Source: Anaerolineales bacterium (GTDB taxonomy: Bacteria; Chloroflexota; Anaerolineae; Anaerolineales; Villigracilaceae). Taken from it: DNA of 64,000 nucleotides. The DNA lies in contig JAGNWT010000001.1 of assembly GCA_017985935.1 (NCBI GenBank), forward strand, positions 32,871 through 96,870, in the 5' to 3' direction. A model generated the notes under the pieces. The model was not told where the DNA came from. It worked only from the letters and a program-made list of their open reading frames with translations, and searched no databases. Positions 2,838 through 27,273 of this stretch are shown in pieces. Position 1 is the stretch's first letter, and each line of letters begins with the position of its first letter. Both the position numbers and the translations under genes were made by a program.

Positions 2838-5366
2838 ATGGCTGAAGAGAATATCGTCCCAAATAACTTGGGCAACATCGAGAGCATAGACATCGACCAG
2901 CAGATGCGCACTGCCTATCTCGATTACGCCATGAGCGTGATCGTAGCCCGCGCCCTGCCAGACGCCCGAGACGGCTTGAAGCCCGTCCACCGCCGCATCC
3001 TATACGCAATGCACGAATTAGGTATGCGCTCGAACTCCGCTTACAAAAAATCCGCCCGTATCGTGGGCGAAGTGCTCGGTAAATATCACCCGCACGGCGA
3101 CTCAGCGGTCTATGAATCCATGGCCCGCATGGCACAGGACTTCTCCATGCGCTACCTGTTGGTAGATGGTCAGGGCAACTTCGGCTCTGTGGATGGCGAC
3201 TCCCCGGCTGCCATGCGTTACACCGAAGCCCGCCTGCAAAAGATGGCCGAAGAGATGCTGGCAGACCTCGAAAAAGACACCGTAGATTTTGGCCCGAACT
3301 TCGATGACTCTCTACAAGAGCCGCTTGTGCTTCCGGCGCGCCTGCCGAACCTGCTGTTGAACGGCTCATCGGGCATCGCTGTGGGAATGGCAACTAACAT
3401 CCCGCCGCAAAATCTGCGCGAATTGGTCGCCGCCATCAATTACCTGATCGACAACCATGACACCATTGATGACATCACGGTCGATGACCTGATGAAGTTC
3501 GTGCAGGGACCGGACTTCCCCACCGGCGGCATGATCGTCGGCAAAGAGGGAATCCATTCTGCCTACAGCACCGGTCGTGGAAGAATTGTGATGCGCGGCA
3601 TCGCCCACATTGAAGAGACCAAAGGTGGACGATACCAGATCAATATCACCGAGATCCCCTATCAAGTCAACAAATCCTCGCTGATCGAGCGCATTGCCGA
3701 ACTCGTACGTGAAGATAAGATCGATCAGATCTCGGACCTGCGTGACGAATCAGACCAACGCGGAATGAGCATCATCATCGAGTTGAAGCGCGGAGCGCAG
3801 CCCAAGAAAGTCCTTAACCAGCTTTACAAGTACACAGCCCTTCAATCCACGTTTGGCGTGCAAATGCTCGCGCTCGTCGATGGCGAGCCCCGCACGTTGA
3901 CCCTCAAGCGCATGCTGCAGATCTTCATCGAGCATCGCCAGACGGTCATCACCCGCCGCTCCAAATTTGAGCTTGCCAAGGCTCAGGCACGCCTGCACAT
4001 CCTTGACGGTTACCTGATCGCGCTCAACAGCATCGACGCCATCATCAAAGTGATCCGCGAAGCCGAAGATGCAGATGTCGCCAAATCCAACTTAATGAAG
4101 AAATTCAAACTCAGCGAATTACAGGCACAAGCCATTCTTGACCTGCAGCTTCGTAGACTTGCCGCCCTCGAGCGGTGGAAGATCGAAGAGGAGCACAAGC
4201 AAGTCCGCTCTTTGATCGATCACCTTGAAGACCTGCTGGCACACCCAAAGAAGATCCTTGCGCTGATCCAAACTGACCTGAACGAGCTGACTGAAAAGTT
4301 CGGCGATGACCGGCGCACACAGATCTCTGCTGAAGCGAAGGAAGACATCCACGATGAAGATCTCGTGGCAGATGAAGCGGTGTTGATCAGCCTGACCGAA
4401 CGTGGATACATCAAACGGGTTGCTGCGACCGCCTTCAAAGCTCAAAGCCGCGGCGGACGCGGCGTGATGGGTCACACCACCAAGGACGAAGACGAAGTGG
4501 TGATGCTCATTCCCGCCCGCAGTTTGAATACCATGTTGTTCTTCTCTGATAAGGGCAAGGTCTATTCTGAGAAGGTGTATCAGATCCCTGATTCAGACCG
4601 CGCAACAAAGGGCATCCCATTGGTGAACGTGCTATCGCTCGAACCGAACGAAAAAGTGACAGCCGCCATGTCGGTGGGAGATTTCTCCTCTCACAGCTAC
4701 TGCATGTTGATGACCTCACGCGGCAAGATCAAACGCGTGACGATGGAAGAATTTGCCTCTGTGCGTCCCTCGGGCTTGATCGCAATGTCATTGGAAGAAG
4801 GCGACCAATTAGGCTGGGCGCGCCTGACCTCTGGCAAGGATGAGATCATCATCGTCACTGAAAATGGACAAGCCCTGCGCTTTAGCGAGACAAAGGTCCG
4901 TGCCATGGGACGCCAGGCTGCCGGAGTGCAAGGCATTCGTCTTTCAGAAGGAGATGCGGTCACCAGCATGGATGTGGTCGAGAAAGACGGCAACCTGCTG
5001 ATCGTTACGACCAAGGGATTTGGCAAGCAGACCCCGCTCAAAGATTACGCCGCAAAAGGACGCGCAACCGGCGGTATTTCCACGATCGATCAGAAAGCCA
5101 TTGCAGAGATCGGCAAGATCACGGCAGCGCGTGTGGTACAAAACGCAGACGATCTGACCATCATGACCTCCAACGGCGTGACCTTGCGCCTGAAAGTAAA
5201 GGAAGTCAAGCAGTCGGGTAGAGCAACGCGCGGCGTACACCTCATCAAGCCTCAGGAAGGCGACAGCGTAGCCTCTGTAGCGCGCATCTCTGCTGAAGAC
5301 CTCAAGAAGGTTGGAGCGCAGCTAGACAGCCCTGAAAAAGAAGAAACACAACCCAAGTTGGTGTAG
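2838..5366 (+). CDS. gyrA: DNA gyrase subunit A
   Basis: [26 protein letters not shown], catalytic AAMRYTEAR, GyrA-box-like QSRGGRG, beta-pinwheel C-terminal repeats. Confidence 0.97.
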
Positions 5367-5398
5367 AAAAAAGCCCCGGAAATTCCGGGGCTTTTTTC
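5367..5398. terminator. Bidirectional intrinsic terminator between gyrA and the GGDEF gene
   Basis: AAAAAAGCCCCGGAA-at-TTCCGGGGCTTTTTT between convergent genes. Confidence 0.85.
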
Positions 5399-5405
5399 TA
5401 CCTGC

Positions 5406-6182
5406 TCACATCATCGTGATCTGATTCTTGCCAAGATGCTTGGCTTTGTACAAGGCCTGGTCTGCGAACGAGATCAACCTTTCAAGTTTTTGCCCGGTCA
5501 CACCGTTGGCAACCCCAATACTGATCGTAAATTTGATAGCGCCTTTACTAGTCGGCACCTTCAACTGCCCCACTTTGATATTGAGCCGCTGTGCAATTTC
5601 CATCGCCTGTTCGATGCTAGTCTCAGATAAAAGGCAGATAAACTCATCTCCGCCATAACGCACAAAAACATCGGTGGACCTGAACACCGAACGGCAGGTC
5701 TCTGCCAAAAGTTTCAGAACATCATCGCCGGCACTGTGCCCATACCTGTCATTGATCTTTTTGAAATCATCCAGATCGATCAACAGGATGGAAGTATCTC
5801 CAGGCAGTACGGCGTCCTTATCATTTACGGACCGTATTTTATCCAGTAAATAATATCGATTAAATGCCTTTGTTAATTCGTCGTGAATGGACTTGTCATG
5901 CATTTCTTCGCGCATGGAATCCATCTCACCCAGCAGGCTGACCATTTGAAAAAGATGATAAGGCAAAAGTGTGGAGCAAAGAATTAAATTGATCGTCAGC
6001 CCGGTCAACACCTTCCCGCCCATGATCATATTCACGGGAACAATGACCAGCGTCCCCACAAAGAATGCTATCACGCAAGCGATCATAACGGTCCTTGCCA
6101 GTCCAACTTTTTTATAGAGGGCAAACAGATATCTTTGTTCTAAAAAATGAGGCGTGTAGGTCTGAGGATCAACTGTTTTCAT
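5406..6182 (-). CDS. Membrane-anchored diguanylate cyclase (GGDEF)
   Basis: N-terminal hydrophobic helices; IDLDDFKKIND-YGHSAGD; RSTD (RxxD I-site) before RYGGDEF. Start ATG 6182 (track 6215). Confidence 0.88.
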   Translation of the reverse strand: MKTVDPQTYTPHFLEQRYLFALYKKVGLARTVMIACVIAFFVGTLVIVPVNMIMGGKVLTGLTINLILCSTLLPYHLFQMVSLLGEMDSMREEMHDKSIHDELTKAFNRYYLLDKIRSVNDKDAVLPGDTSILLIDLDDFKKINDRYGHSAGDDVLKLLAETCRSVFRSTDVFVRYGGDEFICLLSETSIEQAMEIAQRLNIKVGQLKVPTSKGAIKFTISIGVANGVTGQKLERLISFADQALYKAKHLGKNQITMM

Positions 6183-6287
6183 AGCATCTCCCTTTCTGAA
6201 GAAAACACTGTCCATCGGTTTTGGTTGCAGCTGAGTAGCTGATCACGAATGATCGGGCTTGCACCTTTTTCTAAGACCTTTTTAAAT

Positions 6288-6318
6288 AAAAAAGTGACGG
6301 CACTTGCCGTCACTTTTT
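6288..6318 (-). terminator. Intrinsic terminator
   Basis: AAAAAAGTGACGGCA-ct-TGCCGTCACTTTTTT. Confidence 0.8.
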
Positions 6319-6333
6319 TATAAATCTGTTATT

Positions 6334-6561
6334 TTAGATCCCGATCTTACCAAGCACAAATAACGCCATTGTTCCAATAACACAGACAGCGATCATCAAC
6401 ATGAACGCGATCACGAATCGCTGGAGGGATGTCATTCCCAGAAAGCGCCCGGAACTTCTTCGGGCAGGCTCGGGAGAAATCGTGCCGGCGGCCGATTGGA
6501 ACTTCGCTTCGTCTTCATAGAACGGGGAAGATGCTGCATCATCACGGAGATTATCAAACAT
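6334..6561 (-). CDS. Small hypothetical protein with a C-terminal TM helix
   Basis: 75 aa, GAGG RBS upstream, ends just before the terminator, operonic after birA. Confidence 0.65.
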   Translation of the reverse strand: MFDNLRDDAASSPFYEDEAKFQSAAGTISPEPARRSSGRFLGMTSLQRFVIAFMLMIAVCVIGTMALFVLGKIGI

Positions 6562-6588
6562 ATTGACCTCTACTTTTCACGGAGTATA

Positions 6589-7371
6589 TCACGCACCAGG
6601 CCTCAGGCTGACATCCCCAAAGCGTACTATTACGGATTTGTCATGCGCATCACTCAGGCGCAAACTGCCGTCAGATTCGAGCCCCATTAATGTGCCGGTT
6701 ATGGGAGATTCGCCCCCGGCTTGAACCTGAACCTGCTCCCCACGAAAGGCAAGCTGTTCCTCCCAGGCATGGATCAACTCATCTGAGCCAATGCGTTCGC
6801 GCCAACGAAGGAGGGTGGTCAGGATCTGTGCAAGAAGTTCTTCGCTTGCCGGGGGCAGCGATCCCAATTCATCCTCCAGGCTGGTGGCAGGGAATTGCAA
6901 ATGTTCGGCAGGAGGCACAGATTCTCTATGAACGTTCACGCCCATGCCAATAACCAGCGAATCCACATCCGTGCCAGACCAGACCGTCTCGACCAGAATG
7001 CCAGCCATTTTTTTGCCGCCCAATAAAATATCGTTCGGCCACTTGATGCGCGGATCGAGTCCCAGCTGCGCACAAGATTCTGCAATTGAAAGCGCGGCCA
7101 ACCCAACGGTCCGCGAAAGATGCGGGCGCAGGGCGGCAGAGTGACGCAGGATCAGGCTGAAGGCAAGTCCGCTGCCTTTGGGCGTGAACCACTTTCGGTT
7201 AAGCCTGCCCCGTCCCTGCGTTTGTTCATCTGCAACCACGAGGGAGAGATCGGGAGCGCCTTCCGCCGCCCAGGCAAGCGCCGCATCGTTCGTAGAGCCG
7301 ATCGAATCATAGAAGCGCAATTCGCCGACATTTAATTTTGAGATGGCTTTTTTCAGGGATTGTTTGTTCAT
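6589..7371 (-). CDS. birA: Biotin--[acetyl-CoA-carboxylase] ligase (no N-terminal HTH)
   Basis: STN, EQTQGRGRLNRKW, IKWPNDILL, KMAGILVE motifs. Confidence 0.93.
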   Translation of the reverse strand: MNKQSLKKAISKLNVGELRFYDSIGSTNDAALAWAAEGAPDLSLVVADEQTQGRGRLNRKWFTPKGSGLAFSLILRHSAALRPHLSRTVGLAALSIAESCAQLGLDPRIKWPNDILLGGKKMAGILVETVWSGTDVDSLVIGMGVNVHRESVPPAEHLQFPATSLEDELGSLPPASEELLAQILTTLLRWRERIGSDELIHAWEEQLAFRGEQVQVQAGGESPITGTLMGLESDGSLRLSDAHDKSVIVRFGDVSLRPGA

Positions 7372-7413
7372 GGTGAAAAAAACCTGACAGACTGTGAGCC
7401 TGCCAGGTTTTAT

Positions 7414-8544
7414 TTATTGGACAATGCTGTAAGGGTTGACGTTCGAGCCGCCGATACGAACCTCAAAATGCAAGTGCGCACCGAAGGAATTACCAGTGTT
7501 GCCCGCCGCGCCAATGACGGCGCCCTGCCCCACCGGGGTACACAAGCCAACATTGATCACGCTCAAGTGGGCATAGACCGTGACATAGCCGTTGCCGTGA
7601 TCGATCTGCACTACGTTGCCGTAGCCGTAATTCCATCCGCCCTGCGCCATGGTGACCACGCCTGAGCCGGCTGCAAAGACCGGCTCGCCTTCATTGGCCT
7701 GAATGTCAATGCCGAGGTGACCAGGGCCATAGCCGTTCCCAGAAATGTTATGTGAAGATGCGGGCCAACCGAAACCGCCAGCAACCGGGCCGCCGCCGCA
7801 GGCATTTCCACTGATCTCGCCGGTGCCGGTATCCGCTCCACGCCCGTTGGTGGCAAGGTCTTGCTGCCACTGGCGCAGTTCGCGAGAACCGCCGGGGATC
7901 ATCACGCTCATTCCAGGCTTGATCTCGGGGTCGGTCAAGTCTACATTATTGCCGGGGAAATTGATGATGTCTTCCGGCACTGCATCGAACTTTTCCGCGA
8001 CCGATTCAAAAGTATCGCCATCCTGCCACTCGTAATACAGACCATCCACCGGCGGAATGGTCAACTCCATGCCGGGTTTCAGGTTATGCGGATTATCTTC
8101 CAATTGCGTGTTGACGTAGAGAATGGTTTCAGATTTCAGGTTGTAATCTTCAGCGATCGAAAGCATGGCATCACCGCGCGAAACACGATAGACCACCGAA
8201 TCATACCGGGGTCTTTCGGGGATATTGGTGATCAATTGGAGTTTGCGAGGAATCGCAGATACGGCGCCTCCATCCGCGCTGATAGCGGGTACGCCGGGGT
8301 CAGGCTGACCAACACCGGCAGCACTTGTTGGCTGCACTGAAGGAGCGATCGTGGCCGGCCGCGAGTTCTTGTAGTAAATCGTCGAGCCGATCAGACTCAC
8401 CACGAGCACGACCGTAACGATCCAACTAACGATCGAAAAGCGATCCAGTCTGCCCTTGGTCTGCGGATCAGATTCCGGGTTACGTTCTGTTTTCTTCCCG
8501 AAGGCAGAAAAGAAGGCTCTTATGTTATCTAAAAGTTTTTTCAT
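7414..8544 (-). CDS. LysM-domain M23 family peptidoglycan endopeptidase
   Basis: N-terminal TM helix, two LysM-like repeats, HLGID and HLHFE zinc motifs. Confidence 0.88.
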   Translation of the reverse strand: MKKLLDNIRAFFSAFGKKTERNPESDPQTKGRLDRFSIVSWIVTVVLVVSLIGSTIYYKNSRPATIAPSVQPTSAAGVGQPDPGVPAISADGGAVSAIPRKLQLITNIPERPRYDSVVYRVSRGDAMLSIAEDYNLKSETILYVNTQLEDNPHNLKPGMELTIPPVDGLYYEWQDGDTFESVAEKFDAVPEDIINFPGNNVDLTDPEIKPGMSVMIPGGSRELRQWQQDLATNGRGADTGTGEISGNACGGGPVAGGFGWPASSHNISGNGYGPGHLGIDIQANEGEPVFAAGSGVVTMAQGGWNYGYGNVVQIDHGNGYVTVYAHLSVINVGLCTPVGQGAVIGAAGNTGNSFGAHLHFEVRIGGSNVNPYSIVQ

Positions 8545-10363: not shown

Positions 10364-11803
10364 CTATTCGGGGATGATGGTCCAGCCGGGGCGGGCTTTG
10401 AACTTCCAGATGAAGGTGTGGTGAAGCATGAACTTCATCCATGCGCCGCTGACGCCCATTTCGAGATGAGAGGTGAACAGGTCGCGCCCAAACTCATTGG
10501 GGAATTTCTTGCGATCTGGAACCACGGGATGCATAACGATCACGACCGCATTTCCATCCCAGAGAGAATCTCCCATGGAAGCGATGCAGGCGGCGACCAT
10601 GTCGGTCATGGGTTCGCGATGGGTCATCTCCCCCTTTTCGATCAAGTCCACGATGTTGAGAGCAACGACCCGCCCGATCACGCCGCTGACCATGCCTGTG
10701 CGTGGAGGCGCTGGGGCAATAGCCAGGTTGTTCTTGTTCGTGAACGGCTTGGAGATCGGCCCGGGAGGAGCGAAGGCAATGCCCGCGGCGAACATGTTCT
10801 TGTAGGTAGGATTCTGATATTGCGCCGGCCATGCTTCGGGGGTCTGGGCAAGCTCGGGGTAAGGCAGACCGTATTTTCCATCGACCAGGAGAAATCCCGC
10901 TGGGTTGGTCAATTTGGAGGTGATGTCTTCGCCGTTCTTGTCGATATATTTGAAGGGCTGTCCTTTGAATTGCGGGATGAGCATGGAGAAGTCGAAATCG
11001 GTAGTGCCTTCTTCGCCTTCGTAGTTCTGCCAGTGGATCTTGCCTTCTTCGATCTTGGTGACACCGGTCTGCACTTGATAGCGAATGCCATGATCGTTGA
11101 AGACGGAGGTGAGGAATTCCTCGCTCTTTATCACATGCCCATTGCGTTTGATCTGCACGCCGTTAACGCCGAAGTCTCCCATGGCGGGCTCGTTCGAAAG
11201 CCAGAGAATATCGGCTTTATCGCGCAGCCCTTTTTTGACGAGGTCTTTGTGGACATTGACAATGTATTCAAATGCCGCGCCCTGACAGGTTGCGCCGGGG
11301 TGACCTGTGCCAATGACGATCTTGACCTTTTCGCCTTTGCCCATGCGGTCACACAAGGCTAGGTAGGCATCACGGGTTTTGATGGCATGCGGAAGCGAGC
11401 AGATGGAGTGTGTGAAGCCGTTCTCGGGTCCGAGACCAGGGGTGCCGGCAAAGTTGAGGAGCGGCCCGGGCGCAACGACAAGGTAATCGTAATCAAGGCG
11501 CACTTCCTTGTCGGTGCCGACTTCATTCCCAAGCACATATTGGTCGCCTGCATCCGGGTGGATCTCTTTGGCGGCGGCGTGAACGAATTTGACGTTCATC
11601 TTGTCGTACACAGGCTTGAGCTTGAAGACGGTCTTTTCAGGTTTCATGTGACCGACCCCCACCCACACCCACGAGGGGACGTACCCGAACACATCGCGAT
11701 TGCTGATGACGGTGACCTCGTGTTTCCTGCCGATCTTGCTGCCGAGATACAGAGCCGCAGTATGCCCTGCGAAGCCCGCCCCAATTACAACAACTTTAGC
11801 CAT
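10364..11803 (-). CDS. sqr: Sulfide:quinone oxidoreductase, SqrF (type VI)-like flavoprotein
   Basis: Rossmann VVIGAGFAG; HSICSLPHA; GTGHPGATCQGAAFEY; APPRTGM; AACIASMG; amphipathic C-terminus; GGAGG RBS. Confidence 0.82.
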   Translation of the reverse strand: MAKVVVIGAGFAGHTAALYLGSKIGRKHEVTVISNRDVFGYVPSWVWVGVGHMKPEKTVFKLKPVYDKMNVKFVHAAAKEIHPDAGDQYVLGNEVGTDKEVRLDYDYLVVAPGPLLNFAGTPGLGPENGFTHSICSLPHAIKTRDAYLALCDRMGKGEKVKIVIGTGHPGATCQGAAFEYIVNVHKDLVKKGLRDKADILWLSNEPAMGDFGVNGVQIKRNGHVIKSEEFLTSVFNDHGIRYQVQTGVTKIEEGKIHWQNYEGEEGTTDFDFSMLIPQFKGQPFKYIDKNGEDITSKLTNPAGFLLVDGKYGLPYPELAQTPEAWPAQYQNPTYKNMFAAGIAFAPPGPISKPFTNKNNLAIAPAPPRTGMVSGVIGRVVALNIVDLIEKGEMTHREPMTDMVAACIASMGDSLWDGNAVVIVMHPVVPDRKKFPNEFGRDLFTSHLEMGVSGAWMKFMLHHTFIWKFKARPGWTIIPE

Positions 11804-12138: not shown

Positions 12139-12564
12139 TTATTTGGGGTTTGGGTAAGCTGTCTCTTCGCCGGGGACATCCATACCTTCGAGCAGGCGCG
12201 TCCCATACAGTTGTCCATCCACTGTGATCGTGTATTCGCCCGTGCCAGAGATGGCTTGATCCGCGCCGGCAATACTGACCCAGGTAAATATCAGTTTGTT
12301 GCCTTCCAAAGTTCCCGCACCTTCTTGAATGCCGCCAGAGACCAGCCACTGGAATTTGAATTCATTGGGCTGCCCGCCAGCAGAAATGGTGAGCGTGCCG
12401 CCATATTCCTCGCCATGAGGGTCTGTGGCATTAAGCGCGTAAGAGCCGAGAATATCAGGGATGTTATCGGCTGGCGCGTCCGCGCCGAGCGGACCGGGTT
12501 TGTTCCGTCCGCAAGCCGAAAGGAAAAAAGTCAGTAACAAAAACAGGATTGCAATTCTTTTCAT
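12139..12564 (-). CDS. Hypothetical lipoprotein
   Basis: Signal peptide with lipobox LSAC; beta-rich 141-aa body. Confidence 0.75.
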   Translation of the reverse strand: MKRIAILFLLLTFFLSACGRNKPGPLGADAPADNIPDILGSYALNATDPHGEEYGGTLTISAGGQPNEFKFQWLVSGGIQEGAGTLEGNKLIFTWVSIAGADQAISGTGEYTITVDGQLYGTRLLEGMDVPGEETAYPNPK

Positions 12565-12617: not shown

Positions 12618-14957
12618 TTAATCATCTTCTTCCATGGTCATCAGGAATGCGATCAGATCGTTGATCTGCTCTTCGGTCAGGATCTGCCCAAAGTTTTGGA
12701 TCATCTGTCCCGCAGGATAGCCCGGAACAACAAATGCGTTCGGCTCAACAATGGACTGCCTCAAGTAATCCTCAGCAGACATCCCGGGCACACGCTCTTC
12801 GGCTCGGTCTGCAATGCCATAAAATGACGGTCCGATGATCGTCTCACCTTTTTCCAGCGAATGGCAGATGCGGCATCCCGCATTGACCGCTGAAGTGGTC
12901 TCGTAGTAAATGCTTTCGCCCGCCTTCGGGTCTGCAATGTGGACATCCCTGAAGTTAATGGTCAGGTATTGTCTTTCAGCAAGTGAAATCGTGTTGTTAA
13001 ACAGCACCTGTTCGACATCTTCATCAGGGCGGTCATACATTTTGATGACCACATGATGAGTTCCCACCGGCAAGTGTACCTGCTCAAAGATACGCACACC
13101 TTGATTGATATGGTTATCCGTGGCGGTATAAGTTTTATCGAACTTCAGTTTTCCGTCCACTTCCAAAGTAATTCGGGTCGGGTGTTCAAGTTCTGGATCC
13201 ACTTCTGCAAGGCTGGCGGCATCATGGACGGCATACCCGCTATGGTGAGTCATTTGTATCGCAAGAGCAGCAGTATCTGCGGCATAGAACTTTGTCTGCC
13301 AATCACCAAGCCAGATGTAAAACGCGCTGATGACAGCAAGCACTCCCAAAGCCGGCAGGATAAATCGGATATGAGATCGATCGGGCGTGAATTTGAACGT
13401 GTTCGGATCTGACTTAATCTGTGACTTGATCGCCTTACCAAAGTCGGTCGGCGCCGCCCAGGCAGTATGCACCAGCGGAATGAAGTCGGGTTTCAGCTTG
13501 GGAAGCCGCTCGCCATTTGCACGATCGTTCATCCAGACATTGCCTTCACGATTGGCACAGTCTTCGGGCGGGCAGCCAATGAACTGCACATCACTGGCAC
13601 CGGCTTCAAGCGCCTGCGCCGCAAGGTTGGGATTCGCCATTGCAATACAAGTCAACGGGACAATGTGAACATTCGGGTCGTTGAAGTGTGCGCCAACTCC
13701 ATGCAAAGCATGACGCTCACAAGTGAAAACAACCTTTACATTTTTCTTTTCTGCAACCTGGCCGAGGGTGGTCTTCCAAAGCGGGTTGAGCGGAATATCG
13801 CCAAAGGTCAGGGCGTTATCGGGGCAGCTGCCGATACACACGCCGCAAGAGACACAAAGTTTGGGGTCGATCTCTGCCTGGAATTTGGGGCGTGCCCCAT
13901 CAGTGCGCGGGACCATCTTGATGGCAAGATAAGGACAATCGCGTTCGCAAAGCGTGCAGCCATCGCAATTGGACAAGTCCACTTTGACGGGTTCGAGTTT
14001 TTTTGCGCGGGGCATGATCCACGGCAATGCAAGGAAAAAGCCGAGACCAAAAAGCAGAACGCTCCAAAAAAGAGCCTGGGGTCCGCGCAGGAAAGTGGGC
14101 AGATAAAATAAATAAAATAAGTCAATGGGGGCTTCCGCAGGGAATTGAGTGGCGCTGAGAGGCGGCAGCATTCCAAGCGGAAAAAGAGCCGATGCAAGCA
14201 GCAGCACCAGCGTTGAGATGACCATCCAATATTTGGGCGGCAGCCACTTGGCACGGCTCATGCGTTTCAAGTGCAGCCAAAGGAAATATCCCGTCAATGC
14301 GGAAAGCCCCAAATGCAGGACGATCACAAGCATCATAAAGACCCAGCCTGTGCCGGCCGCGTCACCGACAATGAAGTCGACGATAAAGGCCTGTCCGCTT
14401 TGGAAATTTCCAAGAACCTGGTAAAGGCTTTGGTTTAAGATCTGCGCGCGGTTATCCCAGATCAACCAGTAGCCTGTGATGCCGATCACCCAGACCACCA
14501 CGGCCATCCCCACACCAGTCACCCACGCCAGCCAGCGCGGACCACGGAAGCGATCCTGGAAGAAGGTGCGCCATCCATGCAGCAGCCCGAAAATGACCGC
14601 CGCATCAGATGCGTAGCGGTGCATGGCACGGATCACGCGCCCGATGAAGTTCGATTCGATGCTGGAGACCGCCCGATAGGAAAAAGTGAATCCGAACGGG
14701 TAGAACATGGTGAGGTAGATCCCGGTCAACAGAATGACGACCAGCAGGAAGATGGTGATCGTCCCCGTGTGATACAGGGGATTAAAGCGCGGGTCGTTGA
14801 CCAGCCAGTTGATGGGGGCTTCGAGGCGCAGGGAGATGTTCTCGAAAAAATTGATCAGGCGTCGGCTGGGGGAATTGAGCCGCGCATTCCAATCCACGCT
14901 AGGGTTGCGCTCAGAGAGGGAATCCGTCAGTTGTTTTTTTTCAGGGGAAGAGGTCAT
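12618..14957 (-). CDS. Fusion of cytochrome b-like domain, 2x[4Fe-4S] ferredoxin, MvhD/FlpD-like Fe-S domain, TM helix and monoheme cytochrome c
   Basis: Two H-x13-H heme b pairs (HRYASDAAVIFGLLH; HLGLSALTGYFLWLH); CDGCTLCERDCP and CVSCGVCIGSCP; FTCERH..LTC..GCPPEDCANREG; CRICH...GPSF...M. Confidence 0.85.
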   Translation of the reverse strand: MTSSPEKKQLTDSLSERNPSVDWNARLNSPSRRLINFFENISLRLEAPINWLVNDPRFNPLYHTGTITIFLLVVILLTGIYLTMFYPFGFTFSYRAVSSIESNFIGRVIRAMHRYASDAAVIFGLLHGWRTFFQDRFRGPRWLAWVTGVGMAVVVWVIGITGYWLIWDNRAQILNQSLYQVLGNFQSGQAFIVDFIVGDAAGTGWVFMMLVIVLHLGLSALTGYFLWLHLKRMSRAKWLPPKYWMVISTLVLLLASALFPLGMLPPLSATQFPAEAPIDLFYLFYLPTFLRGPQALFWSVLLFGLGFFLALPWIMPRAKKLEPVKVDLSNCDGCTLCERDCPYLAIKMVPRTDGARPKFQAEIDPKLCVSCGVCIGSCPDNALTFGDIPLNPLWKTTLGQVAEKKNVKVVFTCERHALHGVGAHFNDPNVHIVPLTCIAMANPNLAAQALEAGASDVQFIGCPPEDCANREGNVWMNDRANGERLPKLKPDFIPLVHTAWAAPTDFGKAIKSQIKSDPNTFKFTPDRSHIRFILPALGVLAVISAFYIWLGDWQTKFYAADTAALAIQMTHHSGYAVHDAASLAEVDPELEHPTRITLEVDGKLKFDKTYTATDNHINQGVRIFEQVHLPVGTHHVVIKMYDRPDEDVEQVLFNNTISLAERQYLTINFRDVHIADPKAGESIYYETTSAVNAGCRICHSLEKGETIIGPSFYGIADRAEERVPGMSAEDYLRQSIVEPNAFVVPGYPAGQMIQNFGQILTEEQINDLIAFLMTMEEDD

Positions 14958-15036: not shown

Positions 15037-15085
15037 AAAAAGAAAGGGGTGGCAGCCGCCTGCAATGCAAACGACTGCCACCCAG
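15037..15085 (-). terminator. Terminator-like hairpin after cbaA
   Basis: GGGTGGCAG...CTGCCACCC inverted repeat followed by a T-rich tract on the minus strand. Confidence 0.5.
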
Positions 15086-15093
15086 TGATAAAA

Positions 15094-16743
15094 CTACCAG
15101 ACTTTGAAGCCGGGTGAAGTGAGCGAGATGTTCTTGATCATGTCGAAGAGCTGGGGCCCATAGACGATGACGATCAAGGCGAGGGTACCGTACACCCAGG
15201 GAGCCCAGCGGTCGAGCCAATCGGGGGTGAGGGCGGGATCCTGCATGGCTTCAGCCACGGGGACTTCCACTTCTTCCTTGACAGTTTCCTTGTTCAGGGC
15301 AGTCATCAACATGACGGCGAGATAGAGGAAACCGCTGACGAAGAGGATCGCGCCACCGAGACCGACCTGGAAGAGGCGGCTGTTCCATTCCGCAGGAACG
15401 TAGGGAGCGAGGTTGAGCGGTACGCGGCGGGGAGCGCCGAGCAAGCCGAGGACATGCATGGAGTTGGAGAAGATGATCATACCAACGAACCAGGTCCAGG
15501 CTTGAGCCACAGCCCACTTGGGCTTCCAGAGTTTCTTACCGGTGAGGTAAGGCAGGAGCCAGTAGGAAATACCCATGAAGCTCAGGGTCACGCCAGTAGC
15601 CACAGTGAGGTGGAAGTGACCGGGGACAAAGGCGGTATTGTGCAAAACAAGGTTGACGTTGTAGGAAGCATTCGCCAAACCACCGATACCACCAAAGAAG
15701 AACAGGATGCCGGCGAGAAGCTGGGCGGCCACAGAGGGATCACTCCAGTTCAACTTGCCGATCCAGGCGAGAGCGCCCTTGCCACCGTTTTTGCGTCCAG
15801 CGTGCTCGAGGGAGGCGACCACGGTAAAGGCGGTCATCATGGAGGGGAAGAACACACCAAAGGTGAGCATGGCATGCAGGAACTTCCAGGCGGGGGGAAC
15901 GCCGGGATCCACATATTGGTGGTGGAAGCCAAGCGGGGTGGAGAGAACGAGGAAGATCCAGAAGGAAAGGCGGGCGAGTGTATCGCTGAACATCTTGCCA
16001 TTGCCAGCCTGCTTGGGAAGCATGGCATACCAGGAGATGTATGCAGGCAGAAGCCAGAAGTACACGAGCGGGTGACCGGTGAACCAGAAGTAGGTACGAG
16101 CCAATTGCGGGTCTACGCCTTCGAGCAGTCCGAGCGACCAGGGCAGGAGCATGGTGAGGATCTCAACAGCAACGCCGATGGTGCAGATCTGCCAGAGTAA
16201 AGCGGTAAGGATACTGGCGAACGCAATGAACGGGGAGCGTTCATTGGGATTTTCCTTGCGCCAGGCCACGTAGGTCATGAAGAGACCCCAGCCTTCAACC
16301 CAACTGCCGACGACCACCAAAGTCAAACCGAGATAAAAAGCCCAGTTCGCTTTGAGAGGCGGATAGAAGGTGAAGAGCACGGTCGCCTGATTGGCAAGGA
16401 TCGGGATCGCAGCAGCAACCACGCCAACGACCATGATCCAGAAACCAACAACATTCAAGGTCATGTTCTTCAGGGGGCGCTTCAAACCGAAAATGACATT
16501 GAAGGTCAGGAAGCCCATGATGAAGAAGGTCGTCCAGACCAGGGCGTTCAACACACCGTGAACGGTCAAACCCTGATAGTAAGACTTAATGAACGGCTTG
16601 AGATAAACATAAACATCCCAACCCGCATGTTCAAAAGCCTGCAACGGTCCAAAAAGACTGCCGACAGCAAGCGCGAGGATGGCAGTCAAAAGGTGCCAAC
16701 CGATGAATTTCTTTTCGCCAGTGGATAATTGATATTGTTTCAT
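15094..16743 (-). CDS. cbaA: ba3-type (B-family) cytochrome c oxidase subunit I
   Basis: HGVLNAL, WFTGHPLVYFW (His-Tyr crosslink motif), GFHHQY, HFHLTV; about 13 TM helices. Confidence 0.93.
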   Translation of the reverse strand: MKQYQLSTGEKKFIGWHLLTAILALAVGSLFGPLQAFEHAGWDVYVYLKPFIKSYYQGLTVHGVLNALVWTTFFIMGFLTFNVIFGLKRPLKNMTLNVVGFWIMVVGVVAAAIPILANQATVLFTFYPPLKANWAFYLGLTLVVVGSWVEGWGLFMTYVAWRKENPNERSPFIAFASILTALLWQICTIGVAVEILTMLLPWSLGLLEGVDPQLARTYFWFTGHPLVYFWLLPAYISWYAMLPKQAGNGKMFSDTLARLSFWIFLVLSTPLGFHHQYVDPGVPPAWKFLHAMLTFGVFFPSMMTAFTVVASLEHAGRKNGGKGALAWIGKLNWSDPSVAAQLLAGILFFFGGIGGLANASYNVNLVLHNTAFVPGHFHLTVATGVTLSFMGISYWLLPYLTGKKLWKPKWAVAQAWTWFVGMIIFSNSMHVLGLLGAPRRVPLNLAPYVPAEWNSRLFQVGLGGAILFVSGFLYLAVMLMTALNKETVKEEVEVPVAEAMQDPALTPDWLDRWAPWVYGTLALIVIVYGPQLFDMIKNISLTSPGFKVW

Positions 16744-16760: not shown

Positions 16761-17264
16761 CTATGGCGTAACAATGATTGCGCCGTACATGACGCCATGT
16801 CCGCTGCCGCAGTATTCGGTACAAATGAAGTTGTAGGTACCGGGCTTGTCAAACTTGACAGTCAACTTGGAGACCTGTCCGGGGATGACCATGAAGTTCG
16901 CATTTGTATCCTGGATCTTGAAGCCATGCTGAACATCAGATGAAGTCACATAGAAGGAAATGCTCGAGCCAGCAGGCACGGTGATCTCCTTGGGCAGATA
17001 TTCCCAATTGGGAATCGCACGCGCCAGGATATAGGCATCATACTTCTTGCCGGCTTCGATCTCACGCAGTCCAGGGTTGGACCAGGGGCTATTGGGATCG
17101 GTGGCAACGGTGCGGGGATCAACACGTTGTTCTGGGGCGGGAACTTGAATTCCCATACCAAAGGCCGCAACACTGACAGCCGTCGCAAATAACACAAGCA
17201 GGATGGCGCTGAAGATCATCCAGTTGCGCTCGTAGGGATCGATGTGCATTTGCTTGGTGCTCAT
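16761..17264 (-). CDS. cbaB: ba3-type cytochrome c oxidase subunit II (CuA)
   Basis: Single TM helix; DVQHGF and CTEYCGSGHGVM CuA motifs. Confidence 0.93.
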   Translation of the reverse strand: MSTKQMHIDPYERNWMIFSAILLVLFATAVSVAAFGMGIQVPAPEQRVDPRTVATDPNSPWSNPGLREIEAGKKYDAYILARAIPNWEYLPKEITVPAGSSISFYVTSSDVQHGFKIQDTNANFMVIPGQVSKLTVKFDKPGTYNFICTEYCGSGHGVMYGAIIVTP

Positions 17265-17508: not shown

Positions 17509-18099
17509 TTATTGCCTTAGCATGTATTCCAGATCATCGGCGATCTCGTCAACCGTTACGCCGAATGGAAATACCAACTTTAAGTAACCCTCACGGTCAA
17601 TGACCAGCAAAGTGGCCGTGTGGTCGATCAGATAGCCCGTGGCATCTGATCCGGGCTGCACTTGATAAAAAATTCCATAAAGGGATGTCACCTGCGCAAT
17701 ATCCTGCTCAGTGCCGGTGATGCCAATAAAGGAAGGGTGAAAGTGGGTCACATACTCTGCAAGTTTCTGCGGCGTGTCCCGTTCAGGATCAAGTGAGATC
17801 ATGATGGTCTGAACTTCGCTGGCTTTATCTTCACCCAGATTTCGCAATGCCTGCCCAACATTCGCCAGTGTAGCCGGGCAAATGTCTGGGCAAAAGGTAT
17901 AACCAAAATAAATAAGTACAAGCTTGCCGCGATAGTCATTTAATGAAACGTCGCCATCTTTCCCTGTCAACTTAAAATCAAAGGAAGGCTCGGGCGATTG
18001 AATGACCGTGCCGTGGAAAGTATGCGGACGGAAGAAGTACACCCCGACGGCTAATCCGAGCATTACAACAACAATGGGAAGAACGACCTTGAGTTTCAT
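17509..18099 (-). CDS. SCO1/SenC copper chaperone
   Basis: FGYTFCPDICP (CxxxC) plus conserved IDHT histidine; N-terminal anchor. Confidence 0.92.
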   Translation of the reverse strand: MKLKVVLPIVVVMLGLAVGVYFFRPHTFHGTVIQSPEPSFDFKLTGKDGDVSLNDYRGKLVLIYFGYTFCPDICPATLANVGQALRNLGEDKASEVQTIMISLDPERDTPQKLAEYVTHFHPSFIGITGTEQDIAQVTSLYGIFYQVQPGSDATGYLIDHTATLLVIDREGYLKLVFPFGVTVDEIADDLEYMLRQ

Positions 18100-18126: not shown

Positions 18127-18801
18127 TCATGGCGCATAACATAGAAATAAATGGGCAGCTTCGTAAGCCAATTTTGAAGTGCCGTCGCTATTTTGAACCT
18201 CTTCCGCTAACACTCCCAAGTGACGAAGGATGCGGTCAGCGCTGGAAACCTCGGTCTGGTAACGATATTCAGCGCGGACAATTCCCCAGCCATCTACCAG
18301 CACATAAGCGGGGTCAAAAGCAAAATCACCGTTGCCTTTATCTTCGTAATATGTTTCAAAGCCCGAACTGATAATGGTCTTAAGCAACATCTTGTTGGTG
18401 GTGCTCGCGAACTGCCAACGGCTCACATCCGCGCCCAACGACTTGGCATAAGCGTTCAAAACTTCCGGGGTATCTCGATCGGGGTCAATGGAGATGGTGA
18501 CGAAAGAAACATCAACACCGCCCAGGTCCACTTCGTTCAACCGAGCCTGCACTTCCTGCATTGTCTCGTCGATGTTATAGCAAGGCTCGGGACAATTTGT
18601 GTATGTAAAGGTATAGAGTATGAACTTTCCACGAAGTTCTTCGCTGGTAAGCTGCTCATTATCCTGATCGGTAAGGTTGAAAGCCGGAGATAACTGCATG
18701 CGCGGCAATACCTGGATCGGCTGAAAAACCTTGAAGGCGACTGCCGAAATCACGATCAGACCTAAAATGCCGTAAATGCCATTCAACAGGTATTTGTTCA
18801 T
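18127..18801 (-). CDS. Second SCO-family protein (atypical)
   Basis: FTYTNCPEPC, VTISIDPDRDT; FDPA in place of the usual His motif; C-terminal HLFLC. Confidence 0.8.
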   Translation of the reverse strand: MNKYLLNGIYGILGLIVISAVAFKVFQPIQVLPRMQLSPAFNLTDQDNEQLTSEELRGKFILYTFTYTNCPEPCYNIDETMQEVQARLNEVDLGGVDVSFVTISIDPDRDTPEVLNAYAKSLGADVSRWQFASTTNKMLLKTIISSGFETYYEDKGNGDFAFDPAYVLVDGWGIVRAEYRYQTEVSSADRILRHLGVLAEEVQNSDGTSKLAYEAAHLFLCYAP

Positions 18802-19286
18802 GCGAGTACTTTACCTGTCAAAACTGGAACCGGCGCAGAGACAAATGAAATGTTCGCATTCAGGCTGGCGTCCAATAATTCGCCCTCTTCCACCAATTGC
18901 TGAAAGGAGATTAGCGCCATTTCCTTGCGAAGCATGTTCTTGAGCCTCACCCACTGACAATGGACCGGGCACTTTAACTCAAAGGGACATTCGCCCGGTT
19001 TCAGGATGCAGTCTGAAAGATAGATTTCGCCTTCAAAATGCTCAACCACCTGAAGCAGGGATATCTCTTTGGGCGCGCGAGCAAGGGAGATTCCCCCGTC
19101 ACGACCGGCTTGAGTGTGAATAAACCCGCCGCTGGATAATTCCGCCACGATCCGTTGAAGTAACGAAGGCGGAATCAACATTTCACGCCCAATTTCCGAG
19201 GTAGGCACGCGGGCACCCCGGTCCCTTTTGGAAAGGGCCAGTATCACTCGAACGGCGTAATCGGTTTGGCGGTTGATTTTTAGCAT
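18798..19286 (-). CDS. Rrf2 family Fe-S transcriptional regulator
   Basis: RQTDYAVR wHTH start, GRDGGISLAR, C-x6-C-x5-C-x2-H. Start ATG 19286 (track 19301). Confidence 0.88.
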   Translation of the reverse strand: MLKINRQTDYAVRVILALSKRDRGARVPTSEIGREMLIPPSLLQRIVAELSSGGFIHTQAGRDGGISLARAPKEISLLQVVEHFEGEIYLSDCILKPGECPFELKCPVHCQWVRLKNMLRKEMALISFQQLVEEGELLDASLNANISFVSAPVPVLTGKVLA

Positions 19287-19331
19287 AAATTTTCCATTCA
19301 ATGTTGAGCATTATTGTCAACGTTGACTGTT

Positions 19332-24750: not shown

Positions 24751-25878
24751 TTATTTGCGGATCGTTTCCCAATCGTCGCGCAGGAAGTTACCGAGAACTT
24801 TATCTGCTTCACCCTGGGCAGGGAGCACATCTCCGTCAGGCTCCACGTACATCCACGCCTTACCGGCACCCGAGGGGATTTCATCGTCAATGGTTTCAAA
24901 AGCAACGGGATTTGCAGAAGAGTACGGCACGGGCAAATCCCAGCGGATGGTGAGTTGGAGAGTGCTGGCGGTATCCTGCAGTTCGATCAGTTCATCGGTC
25001 AGGTTATGGTCGGCGGCGCTGAGAGAAATATTTTTCACGCCCACTTCTGCCAGCTTTTGCAAAATCTCCTTTGCCTGCGCGGCGTTCTCGTTGTTGAGCG
25101 TCAGATGCACGGTGAGGAAAATATCCTGCGGGACGATGGTGGCAATGGCATTCCATGCCTGCGGGTTGGCAGGCTCAAGGATGAGCATGACATGGTCCAA
25201 CCCGGTTTGCAGGAGCATCTCAAGATAGTCCTTGTCGGCAAGTTTCAAACCGTCGGTGATCAAGCCGCAGACCTGCCCGTTCTTTTCAGCGTGGTCGATC
25301 AACATGACCAGGTCTTCACGCATGGTCGGCTCGCCGCCCGTGAAGATGATATGCGGGATCCCCGCAGACCATGCCTTGTCCATGATGATGCACCACTCGT
25401 CGGTGGAGAGTTCACGGTCCACACGTTTGACGGGAGCATGGTCAGCGTTGGAGTTTTTGGGCAGGCGGTAGGTGATGGCACAGTCGAGCCGCAGAGTGGA
25501 ATCTGCCGAGTGGGGCTGAGCCCGCTCAAAGTCCAGAAAGGATGCGGGGTCCAGGTCTGGAGTGGAGATCAGCGTGTGGATCTGGTCGGTGAAGTTGGCA
25601 AAATCCGCCAGCGCGGTCTTCCGATCCACGCGATAGCGTTTGGAGATCTGTTTGGCGGCTTCTTCGGGGTCGGTGCCTTTGATGAAGTGATAGGCGTATT
25701 CGGCGGCGGTGGGATTCAATTGCATGACGGTGGACGCGTTGAGAATGAGCAAGCCGGACCCGTCAGCGTTCAGACGCAGGTGCAGGCGATAGGGCTTATC
25801 ATCTTCAGTGGATTGCATGTGATGCGTGCCCACAGGAAGCGGCGCGGATTTGGTGAACATTTGAGTCAGGAAGTTCAT
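24751..25878 (-). CDS. Radical SAM-fold paralog lacking all cluster-ligating cysteines, with an RRE/PqqD-like N-terminus
   Basis: Collinear with the 27320-28681 protein. FTGGEP is kept, but AITYRCNNDCAHC becomes AITYRLPKNSNADH and the SPASM Cys are replaced (GAGKAWMYVEPDGDVLPAQ). GGAG RBS; start 25878 (track 25992). Confidence 0.85.
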   Translation of the reverse strand: MNFLTQMFTKSAPLPVGTHHMQSTEDDKPYRLHLRLNADGSGLLILNASTVMQLNPTAAEYAYHFIKGTDPEEAAKQISKRYRVDRKTALADFANFTDQIHTLISTPDLDPASFLDFERAQPHSADSTLRLDCAITYRLPKNSNADHAPVKRVDRELSTDEWCIIMDKAWSAGIPHIIFTGGEPTMREDLVMLIDHAEKNGQVCGLITDGLKLADKDYLEMLLQTGLDHVMLILEPANPQAWNAIATIVPQDIFLTVHLTLNNENAAQAKEILQKLAEVGVKNISLSAADHNLTDELIELQDTASTLQLTIRWDLPVPYSSANPVAFETIDDEIPSGAGKAWMYVEPDGDVLPAQGEADKVLGNFLRDDWETIRK

Positions 25879-25886
25879 AGGGTCTC

Positions 25887-26894
25887 CTATTTGCTGAGTA
25901 TCGCAAGGTCTTGAACAAAGAATAGGATGATATATCCGATGAGAAGCACCACCCAGCCGATCAGTTCGGCTCTTTCCATGATGCCCTCCCACGAAAGGGA
26001 GAAATTATCTTTGACGGTCTGGACGATGCTCTCCAGATTATCTAGTTTGGCTTTTACATTTTCCTTCCAGTCCTTGAGGTAGAACTCGCTCTGGATGGCT
26101 TCGTAAAGTTTCGCGGTGTACCAATCGCCGATGAGCAGCAGGTTCTGTTCGGCGCGTTCAAAGTCCAGCATGACCTCAAGCTTGTGTTCGGCGATCTGGC
26201 GGATGACGCCGCGTGTGGCGCGTGGTCTGCGTTTGTTCTTGAAAAAAGTTTCGCTGATCTTATCCAGCATGGTGTCGATGGATTGATCGAGCATGCGGTA
26301 GCGCAACAACTGGTAATTGCCGATCTTAAGCAGGGCAATGTCGGATTGATAATCGTCGTTGGGCGCGATGATGACCGCGCCTTCCCAATCGACAAGTGTG
26401 AGTTCCTCGGCGGAGTAGCGGGTGCGCGAGATGAGAATGTCGTCGATCTCGCTTTTGTCGAACACTTCACGCTGCGAACGGATGAACTTGGTGAGGGCAA
26501 GCGCGTTCTTCTCGATCCATTTATCGGGCGTGGGTTTTGCCTCCTGCACCAGCAGAACGGTGTACTGTTCGAACAGTCCGTTCTGGCGGTATTGGGTCGG
26601 GATGAATTTGCTCTCCAGCGCAGCCTGGATCTTTGCCCGCTCCTGCAGAACCGATGCGGCGAATGGATTCTTTAACTCGAAGTGACATTCCACCAACTGC
26701 ACACGACCATCATAACGCTGACGCATGACCAGCACCGCATGCCCTTCAATGAGGACGGTCTCTTCGCCAAGCGGGACAATGTCGATATCAATAGGCTGGA
26801 AGTATGGCGCATCCTTTAGTCCCTTAAATGGGTCAGGGACGGGGGCTGTGCCGTCGTCAGTGTCGGGGAAGGCGATGAGGTAGCAGATTTCCAT
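25887..26894 (-). CDS. Hypothetical membrane protein, RMD1/DUF155-like (tentative)
   Basis: VDWEGA..NYQLLRYRMLD..IGDWYTAKLY..FYLKDWKENVKAKL pattern plus C-terminal TM helix; start 26894 (track 27056 overlaps the PAS gene). Confidence 0.65.
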   Translation of the reverse strand: MEICYLIAFPDTDDGTAPVPDPFKGLKDAPYFQPIDIDIVPLGEETVLIEGHAVLVMRQRYDGRVQLVECHFELKNPFAASVLQERAKIQAALESKFIPTQYRQNGLFEQYTVLLVQEAKPTPDKWIEKNALALTKFIRSQREVFDKSEIDDILISRTRYSAEELTLVDWEGAVIIAPNDDYQSDIALLKIGNYQLLRYRMLDQSIDTMLDKISETFFKNKRRPRATRGVIRQIAEHKLEVMLDFERAEQNLLLIGDWYTAKLYEAIQSEFYLKDWKENVKAKLDNLESIVQTVKDNFSLSWEGIMERAELIGWVVLLIGYIILFFVQDLAILSK

Positions 26895-26931
26895 AGGAGT
26901 GGGGTAAGAAGTAAAGTTAAGCAAGAAGTGA

Positions 26932-27273
26932 TCAGGCACGGATAAAGTGCGGAAGTTCAAGCGGGATCTCCAATGAGAGTTCCACAAAGCCCGCGTAGCT
27001 GCCGTCTTTGTACCACGGCGATTGATAAATGAGCTTTTTGACTCCGTTCTTTTCAATAGTGTACACGTTCTTCTGGTGCGCGGCGAGCAATCTTTCGACC
27101 TTGTTACGGGCAGGGTCAGGGTGACAGTCTAACATGTTCGAGCCAACCAGTTTATAGCCACCGTCCTTTTCAAAGGTCCTGGCGGCTTTGTCGTTCATTT
27201 CAAGGATGATGCCTTCCTCGTCACAGACGGTGATGGCGGCGGGAAATTCTTTGATCCATTCGTGGTCAGACAT
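26932..27273 (-). CDS. Stand-alone PAS domain protein
   Basis: ITVCDEEGIILEMN..A, G-x-N-x-x-DCHP PAS pattern; 113 aa; GGAG RBS. Confidence 0.8.
   Translation of the reverse strand: MSDHEWIKEFPAAITVCDEEGIILEMNDKAARTFEKDGGYKLVGSNMLDCHPDPARNKVERLLAAHQKNVYTIEKNGVKKLIYQSPWYKDGSYAGFVELSLEIPLELPHFIRA

Follow-up and report, generated by a model that had tools for sequence, protein, structure and literature searches.

A single-chain, Rieske-less cytochrome b/iron-sulfur/cytochrome c fusion protein proposed as the electron-input module of a ba3-type oxidase in Anaerolineales

To our knowledge, all textbook routes from quinol to cytochrome c oxidase pass through either a Rieske/cytochrome b complex or alternative complex III. 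How, then, could an oxidase be supplied with electrons when the neighbouring gene encodes a cytochrome b and the locus contains no Rieske gene? This question is raised by a 64,000-nucleotide stretch of DNA from an Anaerolineales bacterium of the phylum Chloroflexota (assembly GCA_017985935.1, contig JAGNWT010000001.1, positions 32,871 to 96,870; hereafter the window), in which the genes of a ba3-type haem-copper oxidase are followed by a gene, P0001, that joins cytochrome b, ferredoxin-like, MvhD/FlpD-like and cytochrome c domains in one reading frame. The initial annotation, made from the nucleotide sequence, had asked whether the product might be a Rieske-free partner of the oxidase. We propose that the fusion protein is a single-chain, Rieske-less relative of the cytochrome bc complexes, and we give roughly an even chance (about 0.5) to the reading in which it is the dedicated Rieske-less, menaquinol-oxidising electron-input module of the adjoining oxidase. 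The gene and the parts of its product are listed below in the coordinates of the window.

12618..14957, minus strand: fusion gene P0001, encoding 779 amino acids with no internal stop (open reading frame and translation)
14013..14789, minus strand: cytochrome b core, helices A-F, residues 57-315 (PF00033, cytochrome b6 alignment, Foldseek)
14112..14129, minus strand: P277-I-D-L-F-Y282, the Qo-like motif, in the loop that joins helices E and F on the p-side
13794..13988, minus strand: ferredoxin-like domain with two CxxCxxCxxxC motifs, for two [4Fe-4S] clusters (Pfam Fer4 families), cytoplasmic
13425..13787, minus strand: MvhD/FlpD-like domain with C413, C437, C462 and C467 (PF02662), cytoplasmic
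13305..13379, minus strand: seventh transmembrane helix, residues 527-551 (hydropathy and AlphaFold2 helix)
12930..13304, minus strand: periplasmic beta-sandwich, residues 552-676 (model strands at 562-671)
12621..12929, minus strand: class I cytochrome c domain with C695-R-I-C-H699 and M752 (PF00034)

The domain order was examined with Pfam models and their curated cut-offs. Cytochrome_B (PF00033) matched residues 57-230 with 44.4 bits (cut-off 27.2), the 4Fe-4S dicluster family Fer4_7 matched residues 330-382 above its curated cut-off, FlpD (PF02662) matched residues 421-480 with 38.5 bits (cut-off 22.3) and Cytochrom_C (PF00034) matched residues 692-775 with 25.2 bits (cut-off 21.3). The NCBIfam models for b6 and QcrB were also compared, and the fusion protein scored far below the cut-offs of both. 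The haem b ligands, H113/H127 and H215/H229, form two pairs with H-x13-H spacing and aligned with the four ligands of cytochrome b6. Exactly 14 cysteines are present in the protein and every one of them lies within a cofactor motif, including the two ferredoxin motifs, CDGCTLCERDC from residue 331 and CVSCGVCIGSC from residue 368. The four-cysteine MvhD-like site probably carries a [2Fe-2S] cluster, a cluster type suggested by its sequence; three of its cysteines (C437, C462 and C467) aligned with the MvhD cysteines of 5odc_D. M752 is the likely sixth ligand of haem c.

Searches of the PDB indicated where the individual parts of the protein may have their closest relatives. The top Foldseek matches were the long cytochromes b of bcc/bc1 complexes, and because about 315 columns could be aligned, helices E and F also belong to the cytochrome b fold. 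For the ferredoxin-like domain the closest relatives were FwdF, the C-terminal domain of HdrA and NuoI, and for the cytochrome c domain the best was its counterpart in subunit II of caa3 from Rhodothermus (1w2l). A profile of the beta-sandwich found no relative among the PDB sequences, and its family was not recognised. In the alignment with b6, the cysteine that binds haem cn (Cys35) corresponds to His63 and the CxGG motif reads HTGT; with Cys35 replaced, the fusion protein therefore has no Qi site of the b6f type.

Hydropathy, the positive-inside rule and homology to b6 together gave seven membrane helices with the N-terminus inside, of which A-D bind the haems, and the outer loop between helices E and F carries PIDLFY. 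The ferredoxin-like domain begins 10 residues past helix F and opens an iron-sulfur (Fe-S) insert of 210 residues that separates helices F and G on the cytoplasmic (positive-inside) face, after which helix seven carries the chain back outside, into the beta-sandwich and then the cytochrome c domain. An AlphaFold2 prediction that drew on 36 orthologs (predicted local distance difference test score, pLDDT, 80.6; predicted template modelling score, pTM, 0.74) had elements that matched this predicted topology exactly, with a short helix (residues 283-289) directly after PIDLFY and a linker ahead of the cytochrome c domain (residues 687-693) for which the pLDDT was below 50. Taken together, these analyses agreed with the initial annotation on the four haem b histidines and their spacing, on the two ferredoxin motifs followed by a four-cysteine MvhD/FlpD-like domain, and on a further transmembrane helix, an exported domain and a CRICH/Met cytochrome c; its placement of PIDLFY at the PEWY position is probable from position in the chain, from the Foldseek match and from the family consensus described below. 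With the Fe-S clusters inside and cytochrome c outside, the topology fits both a quinol:cytochrome c oxidoreductase and a wire from a cytoplasmic donor.

The residues expected to hold cofactors were then followed through the family. In the 36 orthologs, which come from two phyla, the four haem histidines, twelve Fe-S cysteines, CxxCH, D279, H63 and H571 are invariant, as is G574 of the beta-sandwich, and M752 is kept in at least 90%. In a wider set of 103 representatives drawn from 50% identity clusters, all four haem histidines were present in every member (103/103), each ferredoxin cysteine in 102-103 members and the MvhD-like cysteines in 101, 101, 100 and 92. Since all ligands are kept in both sets, a chance origin of the motifs is excluded. 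Position 279 is Asp in 98 of the 103 and Asn in the remaining 5, and the consensus of the Qo-like motif is [LIMV]-D-[WPL]-[FWL]-[YF], with the Trp present in only 30. Histidine was found at position 63 in 50 and at position 571 in 52 representatives. A GYWLxWD motif in helix C and the cd region was conserved in both the ortholog and the family alignments.

The initial annotation had named an assembly chimera as one finding that would overturn it. A search of 5.8 billion proteins returned 849 matches, and the best 120 of these, from Anaerolineales/Chloroflexota assemblies of many origins, were nearly all full-length (~775-820 amino acids, 49-83% identity). Full-length homologs overall number in the hundreds (42-86% identity, Anaerolineales and Acidimicrobiia); a scan of species-representative genomes found relatives in 223 genomes for this clade alone, among them full-length ones at 42-45% identity in Acidimicrobiia. 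Within the class Anaerolineae the occurrence is patchy, with members in 24 of 201 genomes and 15 of 120 genera. Metagenomes from no fewer than 10 studies, of sludge and of wastewater, contain near-identical DNA, and metatranscriptome contigs cover the gene. A chimera is thus ruled out by full-length homologs in many independent assemblies and phyla, in line with the metagenome and RNA data: the fusion gene is real, conserved and expressed.

Among 1.84 billion representatives of 50% identity clusters, 392 matched at E <= 1e-30. The best 150 representatives included 101 full-length members, of which 22 have a C-terminal CxxCH and 79 have none; a beta-sandwich-like tail is common to all 101, with or without cytochrome c. 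Nine long family members contain exactly the same three Pfam domains, cytochrome b, 4Fe-4S and MvhD. Additional cytoplasmic flavin or NAD domains were sought in these nine and found in none (0/9), and this candidate elaboration was rejected.

The surroundings of the fusion gene were surveyed as well, and the genes and elements concerned are as follows.

15094..16743, minus strand: COX1, haem-copper oxidase subunit I of the B family, ba3-like (Pfam COX1)
16761..17264, minus strand: COX2, oxidase subunit II with a CuA site (HGFK...CTEYCGSGHGVM) and without a cytochrome c domain (Pfam COX2/cupredoxin)
15047..15083, minus strand: terminator-like, GC-rich hairpin of 17 pairs with a T-rich tail, between cox1 and the fusion gene
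12139..12564, minus strand: lipoprotein of 141 amino acids with a conserved lipobox
17509-18099 and 18127-18801, minus strand: two SCO1/SenC copper chaperones (PF02630)
18798..19301, minus strand: Rrf2-family regulator with a Cys cluster (PF02082)

In all loci with enough upstream DNA (67/67, Chloroflexota and Acidimicrobiia), COX2-COX1 lies directly upstream of the fusion gene. COX1 matched subunit I of the Thermus thermophilus ba3 oxidase over its full length (3e-140 to 4e-143), and judged by sequence the partner is a B-family oxidase, with a ba3-like subunit I and a CuA subunit II that lacks haem c. The association with a ba3-type oxidase, at first suggested by the window alone, was thereby extended to every locus that could be surveyed. 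One RNA contig spans the junction of cox1 and the fusion gene and another spans the junction of the fusion gene and the lipoprotein gene. Two SCO1 genes are found near the operon in nearly all loci of both phyla, and according to synteny the Rrf2 gene is the first of the cluster in Chloroflexota. The lipoprotein gene stands beside the fusion gene in 60 of 63 loci; its product is modelled as an eight-stranded calycin-like beta-barrel resembling fatty-acid-binding proteins (FABP) (AlphaFold2 pLDDT 91.6), with Foldseek matches to beta-barrels, FABP and nitrophorin, and no obvious metal ligands were seen in it.

Delivery of electrons to the oxidase is the best-supported part of our reading, because the outer c haem resembles the CuA-donating domain of caa3 oxidases, the oxidase has no c haem of its own, the pairing of the genes is invariant across two phyla, and distant relatives swap the fused cytochrome c for a cupredoxin. 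This last point comes from six distant members without cytochrome c, four of which lie in oxidase operons; in one of these operons a cupredoxin gene is located between COX1 and the fusion, in the place of the fused cytochrome c. A separately encoded cupredoxin is the arrangement of archaeal quinol-oxidase supercomplexes (PMC4122944).

The likeliest source of the electrons would be quinol oxidation at the Qo-like site, since the Qo scaffold and an invariant Asp at the probable position of the PEWY Glu/Asp are kept family-wide, and menaquinone is the likely pool quinone because menA is present in the genome. In the mechanism that we favour, menaquinol would bind on the outer side, in a Qo-like pocket to which helix C, the cd helices and the E-F loop contribute, and Asp279 would accept the proton. 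One electron would pass to the flexibly tethered cytochrome c and from there to CuA of subunit II and O2, whereas the other would enter the low-potential branch and cross the membrane from haem bL to haem bH. This branch would continue into the two [4Fe-4S] clusters and the MvhD-type [2Fe-2S] cluster instead of a classical Qi site or haem cn, and the clusters could either return the electron to menaquinone at the inner face or exchange electrons with a soluble ferredoxin-like partner. The data establish the cofactor motifs with their conservation, the topology, a cytochrome b fold that takes in helices E and F, the lack of a Rieske gene at the locus, the strict linkage to the oxidase genes and transcription; we infer quinol oxidation, the transfer from cytochrome c to CuA, the formation of a complex, and also which way the Fe-S branch runs and what its last partner is. 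The second electron may travel inward along the branch, as in a Q cycle, or electrons may travel outward from a cytoplasmic donor; if inward, the clusters may replace haem cn or the Qi site, or may pass the electron to a soluble acceptor.

Several observations weigh against this reading. No high-potential cluster is present in place of the Rieske centre, and we know of no precedent for a c haem that takes the first electron directly from quinol at a Qo site. A literature search found no characterised member of the family and no biochemical data on it. The Trp of the Qo motif is Leu in the fusion protein, and this Trp is the best-conserved position in canonical cytochrome b (PMC4122944). A profile-profile alignment with the canonical long cytochrome b of the same genome covered only residues 36-176 and so ended short of PIDLFY. 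A terminator-like hairpin separates cox1 from the fusion gene. Finally, two of the six distant members do not adjoin an oxidase, and therefore the b/Fe-S core can work without one.

The hairpin was examined further. A hairpin with a T-rich tail is present at the same site in 15 of 17 related loci scanned; most have a strong, GC-rich main stem with a sequence that changes from locus to locus, and a few fold weakly. Transcription continues past the hairpin in one RNA contig, between cox1 and the fusion gene. The element may be a partial terminator or an mRNA-stabilising structure that sets the ratio of cox to fusion expression. Since it partly uncouples the fusion gene from cox1, it could also speak for the protein being no electron donor but an oxidase subunit with an accessory, assembly or redox-sensing role. 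Six redox cofactors kept across phyla would be hard to explain in an assembly factor, and we hold such a role to be very unlikely, as we do the related idea that the protein is an ordinary cytochrome b that borrows its Rieske protein in trans from a canonical bc operon.

The evidence on borrowing came from a survey of the window and the rest of the genome. The bc-type Rieske motif (CxHxGC...CxCH) was absent from the 64-kb window, in a search that found its positive controls, and the Rieske Pfam search gave no match on the contig of the window; the absence of a Rieske gene at the locus, noticed at the outset, was in this way confirmed by motif and by family model. Elsewhere in the genome there are two bc-type Rieske proteins, which could be lent in principle, and Rieske genes are sometimes found apart from their cytochrome b (PMC5600118). 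Each of the two is, however, encoded in its own complete canonical Rieske/cytochrome b operon, with cytochrome b and its own cytochromes c. The third Rieske protein, an orphan on contig C5 considered as a hidden partner, was rejected as a 115-amino-acid soluble protein of a suf cluster. Moreover, as deduced from the domain order, the beta-sandwich and cytochrome c would fill the face on which a Rieske head would dock.

Three haem-copper oxidases are encoded in the genome, and the operon of each of the two B-type ones includes a cytochrome b/Fe-S fusion. Of these fusions, the second (contig C130; L012:5347-7410, minus strand) has 687 amino acids and 28% identity to the first; it keeps cytochrome b and the two [4Fe-4S] motifs, has lost all four MvhD cysteines and is without cytochrome c. 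It lies downstream of genes for a second, divergent B-like oxidase (COX1 of 595 and CuA subunit II of 174 amino acids), for a DsbD_2 protein and for a Cu-ATPase, in an operon that extends to L012:12876 and L094. A response regulator of the NarL type and a sensor kinase of large size are encoded upstream.

Other neighbourhoods were noted among the distant relatives. One of the two distant members away from an oxidase (L100; ENA contig k141_921476, genes 4964-8381) lies between genes for rubrerythrin and for a 117-amino-acid ferredoxin with two [4Fe-4S] clusters, with no oxidase nearby, and a fragment in its 90% identity cluster is labelled Candidatus Hydrothermarchaeota. This neighbourhood hints at a cytoplasmic partner and at pairing of the b/Fe-S core with a soluble ferredoxin in anaerobes. 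In a clade of distant orthologs (L062:11620-16955; also L056, L061, L065, L067, L070, L072, L088 and L089), a separate operon 1-5 kb downstream has genes for an NAD(P)-binding, GltD-like Fe-S flavoprotein (697 amino acids), for a short cytochrome b and a protein similar to subunit IV, and for a Rieske protein together with a tri-haem cytochrome c. The set is reminiscent of the Rieske/cytochrome b complexes of the anammox type, in which an oxidoreductase subunit is cytoplasmic. In the same clade an extra cytochrome c of 129 amino acids follows the fusion gene.

The presence of three clusters in series on the cytoplasmic side suggests a path to a partner more than a substitute for the Qi site, and this brings in a different view of the electron source. 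The protein could be a transmembrane wire, the second option of the initial annotation, in which a soluble low-potential donor, either ferredoxin or a flavoprotein on the MvhD-like domain, feeds electrons through the Fe-S clusters, haem bH, haem bL and cytochrome c to CuA and O2. The Qo-like pocket would then be vestigial or a side entrance, which would agree with the loss of the Qo Trp, and the protein, as a ferredoxin:O2 oxidoreductase, would serve to balance the redox state or to scavenge O2. MvhD domains work as adaptors that pass electrons from one soluble module to another, and the combination of Fer4 and MvhD in the insert is like the C-terminal domain of HdrA together with MvhD (NCBIfam HdrA2, residues 573-728). 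The membrane potential favours a flow of electrons from the n-side to the p-side, for which the succinate:menaquinone reductase of B. subtilis is a precedent, and the distant member found beside ferredoxin and rubrerythrin genes and away from any oxidase would also suit a wire. Against it, the synteny survey of the loci found no conserved cytoplasmic partner or acceptor gene in the operon, and no Hdr, hydrogenase or Flx partner genes were found in 80 loci. The fusion protein itself is the one FlpD match in the whole genome; no Hdr genes were found, and no Hdr module lies nearby. The family-wide Asp279 and helices E and F are left unexplained if no quinone is bound, and most of the energy of a low-potential donor would be wasted. 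On balance we consider this view possible and rather doubtful.

The same architecture and topology would serve a third mechanism, a bifurcation without a Rieske protein, in which the transfer of one menaquinol electron through haem c and the oxidase to O2 drives the second through bL, bH and the Fe-S clusters to a low-potential cytoplasmic reductant, for instance ferredoxin or NAD(P)H. The Fe-S chain terminates in an adaptor of the MvhD type, and related cytochrome b complexes have cytoplasmic NAD(P)-Fe-S subunits (PMC5600118, PMC12954380), one such complex being encoded near the distant orthologs described above. In addition, one member of the PDWF-FeS clade introduced below is fused to a ferredoxin and a flavin oxidoreductase (PMC4122944). 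The lack of a conserved acceptor gene counts here as well, an aerobic heterotroph has no obvious need for such a reaction, and a demonstrated precedent is missing; we therefore regard it as quite unlikely.

The reading of the protein as an input module for the oxidase can be compared with systems already described. Kao & Hunte (2014) defined a 'PDWF-FeS clade' of cytochromes b that bear a 4Fe-4S domain plus an MvhD subunit and whose gene clusters lack a Rieske gene, naming Magnetospirillum magneticum AMB-1 as well as Turneriella parva among its members (PMC4122944). Dibrova et al. (2017) assigned large cytochrome-b-containing proteins of unknown function to a 'subfamily H' (PMC5600118), which is probably the same group. 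The core architecture has therefore already been catalogued, since the combination of cytochrome b, 4Fe-4S and MvhD had been reported (PMC4122944); the statement in the initial annotation that no characterised protein with this architecture is known holds, as we too found no characterised member. Compared by its published description, the clade shares with the fusion protein a Qo-like motif of the x-D-W-F type, the fusion of 4Fe-4S and MvhD and the lack of a Rieske gene in the gene cluster, and differs in the motif, which is IDLF here, with Leu in place of Trp. The fused cytochrome c, the beta-sandwich, the lipoprotein and the strict pairing with a B-family oxidase are not mentioned in the literature that we searched.

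The Rieske/cytochrome b complexes (bc1, b6f and actinobacterial bcc) share the fold of helices A-F, the four histidines, seven helices arranged as in b6 plus subunit IV, and an outer-side cytochrome c past the last helix, whereas the fusion protein has no Rieske subunit, carries the 210-residue Fe-S insert between helices F and G and has HTGT in place of CxGG. Among these complexes, QcrC of B. subtilis is an example of a cytochrome c fused C-terminally. Some clades have cytochrome b or subunit IV extended C-terminally by a class I cytochrome c (PMC4122944).

SoxC and the fusion protein differ in that SoxC lacks Fe-S domains and cytochrome c, serves an oxidase of another family and is archaeal. 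In the SoxABCD quinol oxidase of Sulfolobus, SoxC, a homolog of cytochrome b, is the quinol-oxidising input of a haem-copper oxidase without a Rieske protein, and by analogy this is the nearest characterised functional precedent. The fusion protein is not a member of the SoxC family, since it scored 35.5 bits with that model against a cut-off of 740.

QmoABC and the HdrA-MvhD part of Hdr/Flx complexes also combine a di-haem cytochrome b, two [4Fe-4S] clusters and an MvhD-type protein, and link the menaquinone pool to cytoplasmic redox reactions. The cytochrome b of QmoC is of the HdrE/NarI type, however, and that of the fusion protein is of the PetB type; the Hdr, Flx and Qmo systems furthermore have flavoprotein HdrA-like subunits and operate in anaerobic sulfur or methane metabolism, with no oxidases. 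In anammox-type complexes the n-side of cytochrome b is likewise wired to cytoplasmic Fe-S centres, and bifurcation to low-potential acceptors has been proposed for them (PMC5600118, PMC12954380), but they keep the Rieske protein and have separate NAD(P)-binding Fe-S flavoprotein subunits. The Rieske-less b/c quinol oxidoreductase CbcBA of Geobacter was considered as a relative and set aside, its CbcB not being placed in the PetB family in the paper that describes it.

Some further observations concern the surroundings and the rest of the genome. Downstream of the fusion gene lies a gene for a flavoprotein of 479 amino acids that resembles sulfide:quinone reductase (SQR) (10364-11803, minus strand), which scored 59 bits with the type III SQR model, far below the cut-off. 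A chain from sulfide to oxygen with this protein at its core was considered and rejected; the gene is present in only 19 of 63 loci, all of them close relatives, and because it accompanies the fusion only there, we place it outside the core. A cluster on contig C70 (L013:4973-11113) encodes a Tat-exported molybdopterin oxidoreductase, a four-cluster Fe-S subunit and an NrfD-type membrane subunit, together with a PetB-type cytochrome b (340 amino acids) and a multihaem cytochrome c; the contig breaks off within this cluster. This is a module like Psr and alternative complex III paired with a bc-type cytochrome b, which is unusual. In the window at 24751-30382, minus strand, we noticed, judging by translation alone, a secreted protein of 552 amino acids that ends in a Cys-Ala repeat (...SCACACACAGCACACAGGGR), which may be a modified or sorted segment. 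It adjoins a Cys-rich open reading frame of 460 amino acids (27320-28702), and another of 413 amino acids lies nearby (24751-25992); their translations share N-terminal similarity and have the look of radical-SAM/SPASM-type maturases.

If our reading is correct, a third route from quinol to an oxidase would exist beside the two named at the beginning, a single-chain solution that would be far from rare, as the fusion gene is abundant and transcribed in activated sludge. One protein joins a Q-cycle-type cytochrome b to an Fe-S wire of the Hdr/Mvh type, which raises the questions of whether a Qo site can function without a Rieske cluster and whether the low-potential branch of a bc-type protein can be tapped from, or feed, the cytoplasm. 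If the bifurcation were true instead, aerobic respiration would be coupled directly to the making of a strong, ferredoxin-level reductant. The family is also relevant to the proposal that bc complexes arose from membrane-anchored dehydrogenases (PMC5600118), and to respiratory predictions for Anaerolineae and Acidimicrobiia, in which the gene at present carries the annotation 'hydrogenase iron-sulfur subunit'.

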